Assembly: GCA_002449785.1 (NCBI GenBank)
Contig: DJXP01000019.1
Coordinates: forward strand, 7,287-71,286
Length of the DNA: 64,000 nucleotides
Source of the DNA: Clostridiales bacterium UBA7001
Lineage (GTDB): Bacteria; Bacillota; Clostridia; TANB77; CAG-508
Direction: 5' to 3'
Part shown: one piece after another, positions 9,815-14,813 of the stretch
Numbering within the stretch: position 1 is the first letter of the stretch
Layout: every line of letters begins with the position of its first letter
Notes under the pieces: model-generated
The model's database searches: none
What the model saw: only the letters and a program-made list of their open reading frames with translations
Told to the model about the DNA's origin: nothing
Program-made: the position numbers and the translations under genes

Positions 9815-9837
9815 TTAATAACCTCTTTTCTTATAAT

Positions 9838-9872
9838 ACTTTTATACGAGCATTATATAAAAATATTACCAA
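9838..9872 (-). promoter_or_regulatory. candidate sigma-A promoter for gyrA (TTGCTT-17-TATAAT on minus strand)
   Basis: Reverse complement of 9815-9897 reads TTGCTTTTTTGGTAATATTTTTATATAATGC upstream of gyrA RBS. Confidence 0.35.
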
Positions 9873-9897
9873 AAAAGCAAGAAAAAAACCGTATTTT

Positions 9898-10644
9898 TTA
9901 TGCTAATTTTTCTGCTAATATTTCCTGTTCCTTAGTAATATCAAAATTATTTCCATTATTAATAATAATGTTATGTAGACTTTCAATTTTTCTGGCTTGT
10001 TTTATTATTTTTTCAATTGGTAAAGTTTTTTGAATATAATTCTCAATACTTTTATAAGCTTTAGTCATACCATTAATATCTTTATTATTAAAAGAGCTTT
10101 CCCATTTACTACAATAATTTTCTAATTTTTCAATTGACTTTAATTGTGTATTTAAATTTTCCTCTATTTTGTCACTTATAGAATTAATTACCGTATTTTT
10201 TCCATCTTTTATTAACGAAGCAATTTTACTATCGATTAAATTCTTTCTATTTGCCATATTAATTGAAAAATCTAGTAAACTTGAAATTTTATCTAAAACT
10301 CCACCTTTTTTTATCGCCATTTGTACTTGTGAAATATTTTCAAAATTACCTGTTACAATTCCAGAAAGACTTTTTCCTAAATCTAATCCAGAATTTAATA
10401 TTTCCTTTATTCCATTAAAAAAACCTTGTTCCAGTATTATATTTTTTATATCTATTACATCATTTTCAATTAAATTTGGAAGTATGGCTTTTAACCCTAT
10501 ATCAAGAGCTGTATTTATTACTTTGACGAAATCTGATTCTAAAAAGTTTTTTTGATTATTGTATAATTCATTTTCATTAACCATTTCGATCTGACTTCTA
10601 GAATTTAGTTTTGTTTCATTATTATCTAACATTAAATTATTCAT
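9898..10644 (-). CDS. hypothetical protein (248 aa), last gene of the gyrB-gyrA insert
   Basis: AAGGAGG RBS; soluble, Asn/Lys-rich, no recognisable motif. Confidence 0.5.
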   Translation of the reverse strand: MNNLMLDNNETKLNSRSQIEMVNENELYNNQKNFLESDFVKVINTALDIGLKAILPNLIENDVIDIKNIILEQGFFNGIKEILNSGLDLGKSLSGIVTGNFENISQVQMAIKKGGVLDKISSLLDFSINMANRKNLIDSKIASLIKDGKNTVINSISDKIEENLNTQLKSIEKLENYCSKWESSFNNKDINGMTKAYKSIENYIQKTLPIEKIIKQARKIESLHNIIINNGNNFDITKEQEILAEKLA

Positions 10645-10674
10645 AAATTCCTCCTTTAAATATTTACATAATTT

Positions 10675-11829
10675 TTAAGATATATTTATGTTTTCAAATA
10701 TTTGCTCAAATTCTTTTTTTGATAAATCATTAACTACACTTTTATTTATAACATAATTTAATTTTTCGTTATATTCAATATCTCCTATAATTTCAAAGTC
10801 GCTAAAAACACTTTCCAAAATATTTTTATCAATCTTATATTTATTTGTTTTGTTTAATACTAATTTTATTTTTTGACTTTGTATTTCAATATCTTTTATG
10901 TAACTTTCTAAATATAAATTTGCTTTTTGCATTTCTATTAAATTTGGTTCCAACAAATACAAAATGAGATTTGAATATTCTATACATTCTTTTACTAATT
11001 TATTTTTAATATCACCTGGTAAATCTATTATTATATAATCATATATTTTTTTATATTTATTTAATCTATTAAATAAATATTCTACATTATACATCGTATT
11101 ATATTCCATATTATTAAATTCACATATTACTCCAAAGTTATTATTTATGTTTACAATTGAATTATTTTTACATTTAATTTCTAATAAATGACTAATAGTT
11201 GAACTATTATAATTTAAATCAATTAATAATACTTTTTTTTCTATGTTTAATAAGTAATTTGAAAATGTTGTAGAAAAAATGCTTTTTCCAGAGCCATTAT
11301 TTCCTGTTATAACTATTATTTTATTATTATTTTTTATATAACTGTTTTTGTCTATTTTTAATGATTTTTGATAATCTTTTATATTAGTGTTATGTATACT
11401 TTTTATAATTATTTTTTTAAATTCTTCAATATCATTTACATTATTAATCTCACTATTATTGTCAATTCTATCAAAAAAATTTTCTATATTATTTAAATAA
11501 AATATATCAAATATATCTTTACTATTTAAATAATTTTCTATATTTTGATTTTTTTCTTTTAAAAACACTATTAATTTTATGTTATCTTTCAATTTTAATA
11601 TTTTATCGATTAATTTTTTAAAATCAAATTCTTCAGGTAATGCATTACTTAAAAATATTATGTCTATATTTTTTATTTGTTCTAATAGTTCAAAAATTCC
11701 CTCTTCATATTGAATGTCCTTACCTATTACTTCATATTCTTTATATTCTCTTAATTTATTATTTATTATTGGGTTTCCAATAGCAGTAATTACTTTCAAA
11801 CTATCATCTCCATTTCTTCTTCTGAACAT
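10675..11829 (-). CDS. receiver-like N-domain fused to MinD/ParA-family P-loop ATPase (CpaE/TadZ-like architecture, atypical Walker A)
   Basis: IIVITGNNGSGKS Walker A at about residue 176; KVLLIDLNYNS (MinD A-prime-like); DYIIIDLPGDI (MinD Walker B-like); start overlaps virB4-like ORF end by 34 nt. Confidence 0.5.
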   Translation of the reverse strand: MFRRRNGDDSLKVITAIGNPIINNKLREYKEYEVIGKDIQYEEGIFELLEQIKNIDIIFLSNALPEEFDFKKLIDKILKLKDNIKLIVFLKEKNQNIENYLNSKDIFDIFYLNNIENFFDRIDNNSEINNVNDIEEFKKIIIKSIHNTNIKDYQKSLKIDKNSYIKNNNKIIVITGNNGSGKSIFSTTFSNYLLNIEKKVLLIDLNYNSSTISHLLEIKCKNNSIVNINNNFGVICEFNNMEYNTMYNVEYLFNRLNKYKKIYDYIIIDLPGDIKNKLVKECIEYSNLILYLLEPNLIEMQKANLYLESYIKDIEIQSQKIKLVLNKTNKYKIDKNILESVFSDFEIIGDIEYNEKLNYVINKSVVNDLSKKEFEQIFENINIS

Positions 11830-14150
11830 TCTATTTTTGCCAGAATATGATTATCGCCTATAAACATTAAGCTTTCTCCTCTCTTTAAAGACTTAATTTC
11901 TATTTTTTCTTTTTCAGAAATATTTGCATATTTACTTAGTACTAATATATTTTCTTCCTCTAAGGAAAAAAAAGATTTAATAGATGAATTATTTAATATG
12001 CTTTTTCCATAAGCTCCATTATCTAAACTAAACAAATCTGAAACATCTTGTGTTATTGCAACAGCACTTCCACCATATTTTCTTATTGTTTTAAATATTT
12101 TATATATAAAGCTTGCAACAAATTTATTTGATGTTACTCCTATTAATCTCCATATTTCATCTAAGTAAATTGCTTTATTTATATTTCTATCTTTTTTTAT
12201 TTTATCCCAAAAGAGTTCTGTAAACACATACATTCCATATTTTAAATTATCTTCACCTAATTCATATATATCTGCAATTATTAATTTATTATCTAACTCT
12301 ACGTTTGTATAATTGTTTAAAAATTTTAATGATCCATTTATAAAAGGGTATAATTTTCTTTTAAAAAAATCTCCACTTTCGTTGTCATCCAATTCGTAAT
12401 ACAAATCTTCCAAAATAGGCATATCACTGCTTTCCTTGAATATTTTTGTGTTTGTCTTTTCATCAAATTTATATAATGAATTATCATCAAAATTAATATT
12501 CTTTTTATTATATGTTTTTATCAAATATTCTTCTAAAATTGCTATTCTTTCTTCATCTAAATCTCCAAATACTAAACTAAAAAATCCTCTTAGTTTTCCT
12601 ATTTTAGTTGTTAAGAATCCCTTTTCTTCTTCAATACTGTCTTCTCTAATATCCAAAATATTTATATATTTATCAGATGTTGGTCCAAATTTTATACAAA
12701 TACCATCTAAATTCTCACATAATTTCGTATATTCTCTTTCAGGATCTATTATGTATTGTGACATTCCCATTATCCTATATCTTAGTATTAACAGTTTTGT
12801 ATAAAATGATTTACCTGCTCCACTTGTTCCAAATACACACATATTAGCATTTTTATACTTATTCTTATTAAATCTATCTACTAAAATTAAAGAATTATTG
12901 TATATATTTGTTCCTATAAAAATACCATTTTCATCACATATATTTGATGAAATAAATGGATATGTTGAAACTAGCGAATTCCCTAATATATTTCTTTTTG
13001 AAACATTCTTTATATCATTATTATTATTCATGAGTGGAATTGTACTTAAAAATATTTGCTCTTGCCTAAAATTTGCTTTTTTGGTTATTAAGCCATTTGC
13101 CTGTAACAAACTTTCTATTTTATTAATATTTCTTGTTAATTCTCTCTCGTTATCTGATAGTATATTTATGTATGTATAAAGAAAGTATAAGTCATCATTA
13201 TTAACTTGAATCTCTTTCCTAATATATTTCGCATCATTATATGAGTAAGCAGCAATATCAATATCCTCTCTATTGGTGTTTCCTTCTTTTAGATTTACTC
13301 CCACATTTCCAATAAAATATGTTAAATCTTTTATTGTTTTATATGAATCTTGTTTTTCATAAAAAATTGATATATTCATATTTACATTAGTATTAATTAA
13401 ATTTTTAAATATAATGTCATGGTATTCTCTATAATAATCAATAATAATTAGACCTGAATAATACATTCCGTCAATTTCTAAATATTTAGGATTTTTGTTA
13501 CTTATATATCCTGGTGACATTTTATCTTTTGTATCTAACACTCCATCATAAAAACTTTCTATATTAATTCCTCCTTATGATTTTTAAATTCATTTTTGGG
13601 TATAAAAAAACTAGTTAAAACGTCTACACAATCTTTTTTTGAGCAAACATCATAAACAATATTCCCACATCTACTTAAAGACTCCTTTATTTTAAAAAAG
13701 CATTCATTTAAATAATTATTTGCTAATTCTTCTGTTTCTTCTTTTATTTGTTTTTCATTACTCTCAATATCATACTTAACTATAATAAAAAAAATTTTTG
13801 ATGATGATTTATTTTCATCAACTTTTCTATTAATAAAACTAATATAATTTCTTATATTCTCTTTTATTTTATTATTTTTTTCATTTTCGGATATTTTTTT
13901 TAGATTTAAAAAATAAGTTGAAAGATCTTCTTTTTTACTTTGGATTAATATTTGAATACTAAAATCACATGATTTTAAAAATAACTTATACGAATTTAAA
14001 ATAGCTTCTTTTTCTAAATTTGATTTTAAATCATAATTAATAGGTTTAACTCTAATAATTTTAACATATTTATTTTTTATCTTTATAACACCATTATCTA
14101 AAATTTTTTCAAATGGTAGCCATTCTTTTGTAGTCTTTTTATGTTTATTT
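11796..14150 (-). pseudogene. VirB4-family conjugation ATPase gene split by a frameshift (N-terminal ~195 codon fragment about 13566-14150 plus 581 codon C-terminal ORF 11796-13541), with a disrupted start region
   Basis: C-fragment: Walker A FGTSGAGKSFYTK (GxxGxGKSF typical of VirB4), Walker B IYLDEIWRL (DEaW). N-fragment: KEWLPFEKILDNGVIKIKNKYVKIIRVKPINYDLKSNLEKEAILNSYKLFLKSCDFSIQILIQSK matches the VirB4/ConE N-terminal domain but has no in-frame start (RBS AAAGGAG then ATG ATA TAA in another frame). The two fragments are in different frames with a stop between them. Confidence 0.55.
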
Positions 14151-14784
14151 TTTATTATATCATCTCCTTTTTATTTTTTAATTTCATTATTATAATAACA
14201 AAAAAAGACAAAACAAATTATAAATTTATTTTGCCCCTTGAATTTTTTATATAATACAACTTTTTTTATATATTGTCAATAAATTTTTGAATATTTTTAA
14301 TTTTTTTGCCTATAATATTATTATAAAATTTATATTAGCCTAACTTAAGAGTAAATAAATATTTATAAGGTGTTTATTTATTCGAGTTAAGATATAAAAT
14401 ATTGATAAATATTAGTATTTTATGTCGGACACAAGGAGTGTATTGTTTATCCAAGAGCTTTTTTCTCAATTTTATATATAATAAATATACAGCTTTATGT
14501 TATAAGAGTTTTTATAATTGTAACAATTATAAAATAATAAAAGGTTTGAAAATATATAATACATTTGAAGTTATGATTATATTTTTATTTAAAAGTGGTT
14601 GCCTATACTCCTTATAGGACGACAGCAGCTATTTAGAGTGGATTTATAATTTAGTGATTGATTAATATATGTTATATATGGCTTATTAATATAGCAATAT
14701 GTTTTAGGTCAGACCATAATGTATTTTAGTCCAAGCTGAAAGTTAATATAAGTTTTATAATGTTAAATTATTATTTAACTGAAA

Positions 14785-14813
14785 ATAGAGGGTGAATATT
14801 ACACCCTCTATTT

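Follow-up and report, generated by a model that had tools for sequence, protein, structure and literature searches.

The DNA gyrase genes gyrB and gyrA of Clostridiales bacterium UBA7001 (assembly GCA_002449785.1), a member of the clostridial order TANB77, are separated by almost 5 kb of DNA, which raises the question what this DNA encodes and how it came to stand between them. We analysed a window of 64,000 nucleotides of contig DJXP01000019.1, which holds both genes on the minus strand. The upstream border of the block is gyrB (14814-16754), recognized from its open reading frame (ORF) and translation and 80-96% identical to its counterparts in relatives, and the downstream border is gyrA (7373-9814). 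The distance between them is 4,999 bp, in agreement with the split of about 4.9 kb reported in an initial annotation of this DNA, which had seen three genes in the gap and had read them as an insertion into the gyr operon, either a relic of conjugative origin or a small undescribed ATPase-based module such as a defence or partition-like system. The evidence presented here points to another answer: the block is probably half of a type IV secretion system (T4SS) of the monoderm, MPF-FATA-like kind, which is derived from conjugation machinery, is vertically inherited and fixed in the chromosome, and has been kept near the origin of replication (oriC) by gut Clostridia including TANB77.

Type IV secretion genes on both sides of gyrA

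Four genes rather than three lie between gyrB and gyrA, all on the minus strand: a TrsD-like gene, virB4, a TadZ-like gene and a gene for a protein of 248 amino acids (p248). They are accompanied by four partner T4SS genes at 1949-5182. Relatives were surveyed with one genome per GTDB species, which gave 80 loci, together with 10 metagenome contigs; about 20 kb per relative was examined, and four contigs (L001, L004, L087 and L089) were annotated. Downstream of gyrB, after an ORF-free gap of ~655 bp, the first gene (13559-14158) encodes a stand-alone VirB4 N-terminal domain of ~199 amino acids. It matches positions 2-177 of the NCBIfam CD1110 VirB4 family (E 2.9e-10) as well as TrsD/TraD (E 1.5e-7), and its orthologues match Pfam TraC-like. 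The second gene (11796-13562) encodes the VirB4 ATPase proper (~588 amino acids), which matches Pfam P-loop_TraG with 75 bits (cutoff 25.8), AAA_10, and positions 185-731 of the CD1110 VirB4 family (E 8.5e-79; 266 bits, under the equivalog cutoff of 325). With VirB4 above the Pfam cutoff and this close to the CD1110 family, the origin of the genes in conjugation (T4SS) machinery, already proposed in the initial annotation, is supported.

The same annotation described this VirB4-family ATPase as frameshifted. The family assignment stands, but the frameshift does not: the N-terminal and C-terminal parts are separate ORFs in every one of ~66 loci, in frame relations 0, 1 and 2 and with spacings ranging from a 50-nt overlap to a gap of ~100 nt, and each part has its own Shine-Dalgarno sequence. 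Because the two parts occur in all three frame relations and with varied spacing, a recent frameshift is ruled out. Programmed frameshifting that would fuse them was considered and rejected on the same grounds, as the frame relations seen in relatives include in-frame stop codons. In the window (14153-14158), the TrsD-like gene starts with ATA shortly after a Shine-Dalgarno sequence (AAAGGAG-atgat-ATA) and ends with TAG at 13561-13559. Near relatives have ATA or ATT as the start of this gene, 5-9 nt after a strong Shine-Dalgarno sequence, and more distant relatives have ATG there. VirB4 probably reinitiates at an ATA codon (13562-13560) that overlaps the upstream TAG (AAGGAGG-aattaat-ATAG), the first canonical start being GTG at 13541. 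Because of the ATA and ATT starts, gene callers truncate or miss the TrsD-like gene and virB4, as in the calls of 67 and 526 amino acids in L004. A VirB4 annotated as frameshifted or start-less in this clade is thus probably a real arrangement of two genes. The nearest plasmid VirB4, of Vescimonas pMM35_02, is 35% identical and is there unsplit and fused to PrgI. A stand-alone TrsD beside VirB4 is known from pGO1, and in Patescibacteria no other T4SS component is as common (PMC12102498).

The partner genes lie just beyond gyrA and are encoded on the plus strand. The first (1949-3583) encodes a VirD4-type coupling protein (T4CP) with an N-terminal transmembrane segment and matches to Pfam TrwB_AAD_bind (42 bits, cutoff 20.5) and TraG-D_C (33.7 bits, cutoff 22). 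It is followed by the gene for a VirB2-like T4SS pilin of 109 amino acids (3642-3971), which has a signal peptide and two hydrophobic helices; T4SS_pilin is matched by 29 of 30 orthologues (best 3.9e-6) and TrbC/VirB2 by 9 of 30, the window copy alone being under the cutoff. Next comes a gene for a probable VirB6-like polytopic membrane protein (3926-4885; probably 293 amino acids, from ATG 4004) with at least five hydrophobic segments and conserved synteny, for which TrbL/VirB6 is the sole Pfam family matched (2 of 33 orthologues, best E 0.003). The last gene (4886-5182) encodes a small hydrophobic membrane protein of 98 amino acids resembling PrgI/VirB3. Its profile matches are all weak, the PrgI match (E 0.004) being under the cutoff and found in 2 of 30 orthologues, and its position between the VirB6-like gene and the remainder is conserved in ~50 loci. 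Profile searches of PDB sequences yielded no match for the VirB6-like protein and no useful one for the pilin. The genes between the T4CP block and gyrA belong to host replication and encode a protein with a DnaD domain and a loader of the DnaC type (PRK06835, above cutoff), and the T4SS genes thus form two blocks which are interleaved with gyrA, dnaC and dnaD. The supposed trio between gyrB and gyrA is, judged by the predicted products, half of a T4SS and not a small ATPase-based module, as the coupling protein, the VirB2-like pilin, the probable VirB6 and the PrgI-like gene are encoded just beyond gyrA.

The third gene of the block, an ORF of 384 amino acids (10675-11829), encodes a protein of TadZ/CpaE architecture consisting of an atypical receiver domain and a MinD-fold ATPase. 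Its probable start is TTG 11799, which overlaps the VirB4 TGA stop and gives 374 amino acids, as in the 99%-identical relative P0001. The initial annotation had recognized both domains, the GNNGSGKS P-loop and the likeness to TadZ/CpaE, and the profile search, the structure model and the fold match agree with it. The C-terminal half matches MinD (E 1.9e-15, profile against PDB sequences). An AlphaFold model with a predicted local distance difference test (pLDDT) score of 77 shows two domains and a disordered linker, and its best full-length fold match is 3fkq, a two-domain protein of E. rectale which we take to be the published TadZ structure; ParA, MinD, FleN and FlhG come next. The receiver-like domain reads LSN at the position of the phospho-acceptor Asp. 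The P-loop is a canonical GxxGxGKS across the family and lacks the signature lysine of ParA/MinD, and the NCBIfam ParA match reaches 28 bits versus a cutoff of 180. No homologues were found in 72,556 plasmids. The neighbours of the gene are VirB4 and p248 in all loci, with no tad/cpa context of CpaF/TadA and TadB/C, and the order of VirB4 followed by a TadZ-like gene was rightly judged to be a non-standard layout for a Gram-positive T4SS. Since the Tad cluster of TANB77 has separate TadZ/CpaE homologues (PMC11680825), the protein is not the TadZ of the Tad pilus.

The TadZ-like (or MinD-like) gene is not present throughout. Among the 65 species loci with VirB4 as well as p248, it is a complete two-domain gene in 45-46 and absent from 10; in nine of the latter p248 starts 44-79 nt after VirB4, and in L027 a 4.4-kb insertion lies between the two. 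The receiver-like domain is fused to p248 and the ATPase domain is absent in four loci, and in another five only one of the two domains was detected. The ATPase domain has been lost in six species beyond the 10 without the gene. On this distribution the MinD-like ATPase is an accessory component, and because its gene is missing or partial in some species, the invariant core between the gyrase genes consists of the TrsD-like protein, VirB4 and p248. Fusions of the receiver-like domain to p248 are found in L011, L013, L014 and L081 and, with an hhalign probability of 99.6, in three metagenome proteins (P0242, P0245 and P0246), from which it appears that this domain works with p248.

The fourth gene (9898-10644), which always follows VirB4 or the TadZ-like gene, encodes p248, a clade-restricted protein predicted to be all-helical and without a transmembrane segment. 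There are 746 homologues, and the family is small, with 480 representatives (50% identity) in a set of 1.84 billion proteins. No family match was found in Pfam or NCBIfam, nothing useful came from PDB profiles, and the predicted structure has no fold match at E<=0.001, which agrees with the earlier description of a protein without recognizable domains. Three candidates were compared as relatives of p248 or the TadZ-like protein and found to be unrelated, namely DUF5697, DUF6100 and a 372-amino-acid protein, which are encoded beside VirB4 on Vescimonas pMM35_02. In addition, P0329, in which the N-terminal part of p248 is joined to a SpaA/LPXTG domain in a way that suggests surface display, was set aside as a probable assembly chimera; it comes from a single 2.5-kb contig of 2.9x coverage, beside spoVG.

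Synteny, conservation and competing explanations

A tblastn search with the window proteins identified the order gyrB, VirB4 in two genes, usually the MinD-like gene, p248 and gyrA in 80 out of 80 species loci and in the metagenome contigs, as far as the contigs reach. Contigs whose p248 homologues are only 60-65% identical carry gyrB, a TraC-like gene (~200 amino acids), VirB4 (~590), a CbiA/MinD-like gene (~380), a gene for ~240 amino acids and gyrA on one strand, and on the opposite strand DnaC-like and DnaD-like genes, genes for 93, 290 and 109 amino acids and a TraG/T4CP gene. Distant MinD-like homologues (29-34% identity) are likewise located between gyrB and gyrA, in contigs where gyrA and the T4CP block are not neighbours. 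All 80 loci come from uncultured gut Clostridia, with rabbit, human, mouse, sheep and deer as hosts, and they include Clostridium sp. CAG:273, CAG:567 and 28_12. CAG-273 is filed by GTDB under Clostridia, TANB77, CAG-508 (PMC13508870). Identical gene order in close relatives was the observation which, according to the initial annotation itself, would make the arrangement an ancestral one, and this order was found in all 80 species representatives and the 10 metagenome contigs. The gyrB-gyrA arrangement is ancestral and lineage-wide and is neither an insertion nor peculiar to this genome.

Some loci carry additional genes. In L009, L010, L012, L017, L020, L021 and L040 (e.g., L020:3266-6241), genes for an OmpR-type response regulator and a histidine kinase stand directly upstream of the TrsD-like gene and are co-oriented with it, and a gene for a leucine-rich repeat (LRR) protein is found upstream of the TrsD-like gene in L001 (5123-6382). 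The two-component and LRR genes are possible lineage-specific regulators of the T4SS operon, or cargo beside it. L087 (14685-15953) and L088, where the T4CP block is not beside gyrA, have a gene for a 422-amino-acid protein without a Pfam match after gyrA, followed by AddB.

Conservation of the individual proteins was expressed as the median identity of relatives to the window protein across 80 species. The gyrase subunits are the most conserved (gyrB 84%, gyrA 81%), followed by dnaN (74%), dnaA (69%), VirB4 (67%), the pilin-like 109-amino-acid protein (63%), the T4CP (58%), recF (57%), the DnaD-like (54%) and DnaC-like (51%) proteins, the VirB6-like product of the 3926-4885 ORF (p319; 47%), p248 (46%), the PrgI-like p98 (45%) and the MinD-like protein (33%). 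VirB4 is thus more conserved than recF, DnaD and DnaC. Its ORF is full length in 58 of the 64 loci in which no contig end interrupts it, and the Walker A and B motifs are present in all 58 full-length copies; Walker A was also found in 35 of 35 T4CP orthologues and in 37 of 39 MinD-like proteins. The identity of VirB4 to the window protein covaries with that of gyrB (Spearman 0.77) and gyrA (0.84), and the value for gyrB versus gyrA is 0.74. Covariation of VirB4 with the gyrase genes as tight as that between gyrB and gyrA is the pattern predicted by vertical co-inheritance. As judged from sequence conservation, the T4SS genes are under purifying selection.

Several observations weigh against a complete, vertically inherited T4SS. 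The identity of the T4CP does not clearly track that of gyrB or gyrA (rho 0.22-0.23), and L087-L090 retain the gyrB-gyrA block without a T4CP/pilin block next to gyrA. VirB6 and VirB3 were assigned from weak profile matches in combination with topology and position, and the model of p248 is poor (pLDDT 57.7), so its role is a guess. No VirB8/TcpC-like protein and no peptidoglycan hydrolase were found among the window ORFs scanned or the called genes of L001, L004, L087 and L089; a VirB8-like protein and a cell-wall hydrolase are usual in monoderm T4SSs. Relaxase and integrase families were likewise not found among the window proteins scanned or the called genes within 10 kb on either side in the same four contigs; the relaxase result covers ~20 kb per relative, and a relaxase elsewhere in the genomes is possible.

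We considered four other explanations. The first takes its cue from the position of the genes. Two clusters of DnaA boxes (19353-19435 and 20915-20992) and a change of sign of the GC skew near 21 kb place the T4SS genes 5-11 kb from oriC, and dnaA itself is ~5 kb from the gyrB-gyrA block. VirD4 and VirB4 belong to the FtsK/HerA-related class of motors, which is echoed here by weak HerA matches. Together with the location among replication genes and the MinD-like fold, this would fit a module for DNA segregation or division, in which the MinD-like ATPase and p248 position the origin or the septum and VirB4 and VirD4 pump DNA within or between daughter cells without a secretion channel. We nevertheless regard such a module as unlikely. 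The chromosome has a canonical Soj/Spo0J pair at 28054-29692, and the MinD-like ATPase is absent from 10 of the 65 species; both observations also weaken the partition-like system suggested initially. Moreover, its P-loop (GNNGSGKS) does not have the signature lysine of the deviant Walker A motif (KGGxxGK[ST]), and the motors are conserved together with polytopic membrane partners and a secreted pilin of the VirB2 type.

An active integrative and conjugative element (ICE), or an ICE family which repeatedly targets the gyrB-gyrA intergenic region, would account for a near-complete minimal T4SS set with its coupling protein and for the cargo-like extras, the two-component system and the LRR protein, in the same gaps of some relatives. 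It is very unlikely in view of the interleaving of the T4SS genes with gyrA, dnaC and dnaD, the occupation of the same site in 80 of 80 species, the divergence of VirB4, which tracks that of gyrB and gyrA, and a GC content of the block as low as that of the surrounding genome. Nor were an integrase, a relaxase or repeat-bounded ends found in the four annotated contigs.

Even less probable is the initial suggestion of a relic, namely a decaying ICE which became lodged between gyrB and gyrA and no longer functions. The conjugative ancestry of the genes, the absence of relaxase, hydrolase and VirB8-like genes nearby, a VirB4 in two pieces without canonical start codons, and a nearest plasmid VirB4 of only 35% identity could all be taken as signs of decay. 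The split, however, is itself conserved in ~66 loci and in all frame relations, and the ATA start is correctly spaced from its Shine-Dalgarno sequence, an arrangement that is also conserved. ORFs and ATPase motifs are intact across species, with Walker motifs in 58 of 58 VirB4 copies, conservation is above that of several replication genes, and the divergence of VirB4 runs parallel to that of the gyrase genes. The least credible alternative, also raised in the initial annotation, is anti-phage defence by a system around a HerA/VirB4-like ATPase, since the weak and generic PADLOC matches of VirB4 to mad8 (73 bits), DndH and HerA stand against 266 bits to the CD1110 VirB4 family, p248 and the TrsD-like part have no PADLOC match, T4SS pilin, T4CP, PrgI-like and VirB6-like genes accompany VirB4, and the locus is fixed in every species examined, whereas defence islands are variable.

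The spacer downstream of gyrB and the wider window

The DNA between gyrB and the first T4SS gene had been described as a non-coding leader of 650 bp. It is free of ORFs, but it holds the operon promoter (14279-14251) and a structured RNA gene of ~440 nt (14323-14758, plus strand) whose orientation is antisense to that of gyrB and VirB4. The spacer of most relatives measures 550-800 bp, also without an ORF, and ~400 nt of it is conserved as DNA in 57 loci (nhmmer E 1e-26 to 1e-108), always directly after gyrB. The element keeps this place also in those loci in which a two-component system or an LRR gene stands between it and the T4SS genes. In relatives the RNA is 353-475 nt long. In the window, a closing helix of 16 bp pairs 14323-14339 with 14742-14758, and RNAalifold analysis of 34 sequences on the plus strand gave nine helices; of their 107 pairs, 75 have double compensatory changes. 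The proportion of paired alignment cells is 96.8%, compared to 36-46% with slid partners, and the covariation score is 0.477, compared to 0.08-0.09 in slid controls; none of 500 shuffles reached the observed values. The RNA is assigned to the plus strand because several G-U pairs that are invariant in the 34 sequences would be A-C mismatches on the other strand.

Two predicted promoters stand back to back in front of the RNA gene and the T4SS operon. The promoter-like site of the RNA gene (TTGAAT-18-TATAAT, 14287-14316, plus strand) has 10 of 12 matches and a -10 box that ends 7 nt short of the base with which pairing in the closing helix begins, and both boxes are kept in the 7-species alignment A3. 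The site of the TrsD-like/VirB4 operon (TTGACA-17-TATTAT, 14251-14279, minus strand) is the best in the region with 11 of 12 matches, and TTGACA-N17-TAT(T/G)AT is found upstream of the first T4SS gene in all seven aligned species. No DnaA boxes were found near the operon promoter in the window. In L011, L013 and L014 (alignment A3, columns ~715-745), two tandem DnaA-box-like TGTGGATAA motifs lie between the RNA gene and the T4SS promoter; these TGTGGATAA boxes hint at DnaA-linked regulation in part of the clade. At the other end of the spacer, a hairpin at 14780-14816 is predicted to terminate transcription in both directions, of gyrB on the minus strand and of the RNA gene on the plus strand. 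It folds with -20.3 kcal/mol on the plus strand, where it is followed by UUUUUAUAU, and with -18.4 kcal/mol on the minus (gyrB) strand (z = -5.7), none of 200 shuffles folds as well, and the strong hairpin attributed to gyrB in the initial annotation is thereby confirmed. The T-run after the hairpin is better on the strand of the RNA gene than on that of gyrB, where it is short, which is why a terminator scan did not call the gyrB hairpin.

A search of Rfam 15, whose models include OLE, RNase P, tmRNA, 6S, SRP, ROOL, GOLLD, HEARO and raiA, returned no family at E<=10 over the RNA element in the window, L011 and L087, and a search of the whole 64-kb window returned nothing at the gathering score or at E<=0.5 over the element. 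Known large RNAs were considered individually. A tmRNA was rejected, as ARAGORN finds none, and RNase P because there is no Rfam match. OLE variant 1 has been reported from TANB77, where Infernal detected it with the OLE model (PMC11332333). Identity with OLE is unlikely, since a true OLE should then score with that model; it gave nothing at E<=10 in the three representatives, and no oapA-like gene is a neighbour. The ~440-nt RNA, which came to light in passing, is a candidate, and a well-supported one, for a new family of large non-coding RNAs. It is similar to the ornate RNAs OLE, ROOL, GOLLD and raiA in its length of several hundred nucleotides, its many covarying helices and its restriction to a Firmicutes lineage. 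It differs from them in the lack of a match in Rfam 15 (E<=10, three representatives) and of an adjacent oapA-like gene, and in its fixed position convergent with gyrB. The T4SS is kept without the RNA in seven species whose spacer is short, so the two are neighbours and not obligate partners.

The site TTGCTT-17-TATAAT, which had been proposed as gyrA's own promoter, is indeed present upstream of gyrA (9852-9880, minus strand, read from the sequence). It is not distinguishable from chance, however, because promoter-like sites in this AT-rich window are no commoner than in shuffles (63 found versus 66 expected). Upstream of gyrB, the minus strand carries recF (16791-17858), a small ORF (17869-18063), dnaN (18101-19219) and dnaA (19537-20883), and the remainder is ordinary origin-proximal chromosome with yidC, jag, mnmE, mnmG, rsmG, soj, spo0J and others. 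Within dnaA (20362-20442, plus strand) there is a sub-threshold Rfam match to AsdA, an antisense RNA of dnaA mRNA, which is probably due to chance (32 bits versus a gathering score of 52, E 0.01). Further along, almost 5 kb of DNA at 30300-35280 has 10-17% G+C and low-complexity A/T repeats, gives no Rfam match and has no ORFs of at least 40 amino acids except short ones around two tRNA genes (31191-31436). Such an AT-rich stretch is unusual in a reduced genome.

Proposed function and comparison with known systems

We propose the following working of the system. VirB4, together with the TrsD-like protein, would dock through the membrane proteins VirB3 and VirB6 and would then energise the assembly of the pilin and of a translocation channel, into which the coupling protein may feed the substrate. 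VirC1 of Agrobacterium is a ParA-like accessory ATPase of a T4SS. The TadZ-like protein could position or nucleate the machine in a manner comparable to that of TadZ for Tad pili and VirC1 for the Agrobacterium T4SS. Its receiver-like domain would contact p248, a putative cytoplasmic helical adaptor which always accompanies VirB4. The operon would be transcribed from its own near-consensus promoter and be insulated from gyrB by the bidirectional terminator which it has in common with the ~440-nt RNA gene. For the biological role and the substrate of the T4SS we infer the following: the machine would serve the transfer of macromolecules from cell to cell in a host- or partner-dependent lifestyle, rather than the spread of a mobile element, and the transfer could be exchange or uptake of DNA or delivery or acquisition of protein.

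TANB77 has been described as uncultured, with reduced genomes, and as consisting of likely obligate symbionts (PMC11332333; PMC11680825). It is prevalent in the human gut, conserves a Tad pilus and has been associated with the response to checkpoint blockade (PMC11680825). We found no prior description in the literature of a T4SS in TANB77, nor of VirB4 with gyrA, gyrB and TadZ. The presence of a T4SS near the origin in every species examined is a concrete clue to the life of these organisms with reduced genomes and may explain their resistance to culture. A tentative extension, which we put forward as a possibility with the odds somewhat against it, is that TANB77 depends on the domesticated origin-proximal T4SS and the conserved Tad pilus for contact-dependent exchange and is epibiotic or obligately partner-dependent. 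The TadZ-like ATPase and the receiver-binding p248 adaptor would then be lineage-specific inventions, encoded beside a new class of ~400-nt structured RNA. The epibiotic part of this proposal is suggested by the pair of T4SS and Tad pilus, which would mirror the pair of T4SS and type IV pilus needed by the epibionts of the Patescibacteria.

Among known systems, the conjugative T4SSs of Firmicutes (CD1110/CTn-type, pGO1/pSK41 Trs, pIP501 Tra and pCF10 Prg) are similar in that the VirB4 described here is closest to the CD1110 family, and pGO1 also has a separate TrsD/TraD-type N-domain protein. The gene order T4CP, pilin-like, VirB6 and PrgI resembles that of ICE modules. In contrast to these systems, the window and the four contigs yielded no relaxase/oriT, integrase, VirB8-like protein or hydrolase, the locus is fixed and syntenic in 80 species and not mobile, and VirB4 is parted from PrgI and VirB6 by gyrA, dnaC and dnaD.

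The TadZ/CpaE proteins of Tad/Flp pili share with the 374-amino-acid protein a receiver-like domain without the phospho-acceptor Asp, a MinD-fold ATPase and a gene position beside a secretion ATPase. The protein studied here differs in being encoded with VirB4 and not with CpaF or TadB/C, in its canonical Walker A motif, in being dispensable in some species and in having no plasmid homologue. The TadZ-type ATPase and the p248 adaptor would be added parts of the T4SS, linked to each other by gene fusions.

Domestication of conjugation machinery has precedents. The ComB system of Helicobacter is conjugation machinery without a relaxase that has been domesticated by its host for DNA import and exchange. 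The archaeal Ced and Ted DNA importers are domesticated conjugation machinery as well (Beltran et al. 2023, PMC9905601). The ComB, Ced and Ted systems lack a relaxase and do not serve the spread of plasmids, and their parts include, as in the system described here, an ATPase of the VirB4 type, a VirB2-like pilin and a polytopic membrane protein. Beyond VirB4, however, no sequence relationship can be detected, and Ced is without a T4CP. Import of DNA by the T4SS of TANB77 can only be hypothesised.

By analogy in content and position, no known system comes closer than the relaxase-less, origin-proximal T4SS in the chromosomes of the Patescibacteria, or Candidate Phyla Radiation (CPR). This system is chromosomal, has no relaxase, comprises VirB4, TrsD, PrgI, VirB6 and a VirB2-like pilin and is often located near dnaA (Quinonero-Coronel et al. 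2025, PMC12102498). It is essential for epibiotic growth in Ca. Southlakia epibionticum (PMC12102498, citing its ref. 37). The likeness extends to VirB4, the stand-alone TrsD, PrgI/VirB3, VirB6 and the VirB2-like pilin, although the PrgI and VirB6 matches are weak here, to the chromosomal location near dnaA/dnaN with no nearby relaxase, and to hosts with reduced genomes that are presumed to depend on a partner. The differences are that the host here belongs to an order of Clostridia, that the genes are wedged inside gyrB-gyrA, that the T4CP is tightly linked in most species, and that a TadZ-like ATPase and p248 have been added. As the T4SS is likewise key to the epibiosis of Patescibacteria, the same logic may be applied to TANB77, and if the interpretation is true, the occurrence of a co-opted, relaxase-less monoderm T4SS extends from CPR and archaea into mainstream Firmicutes.

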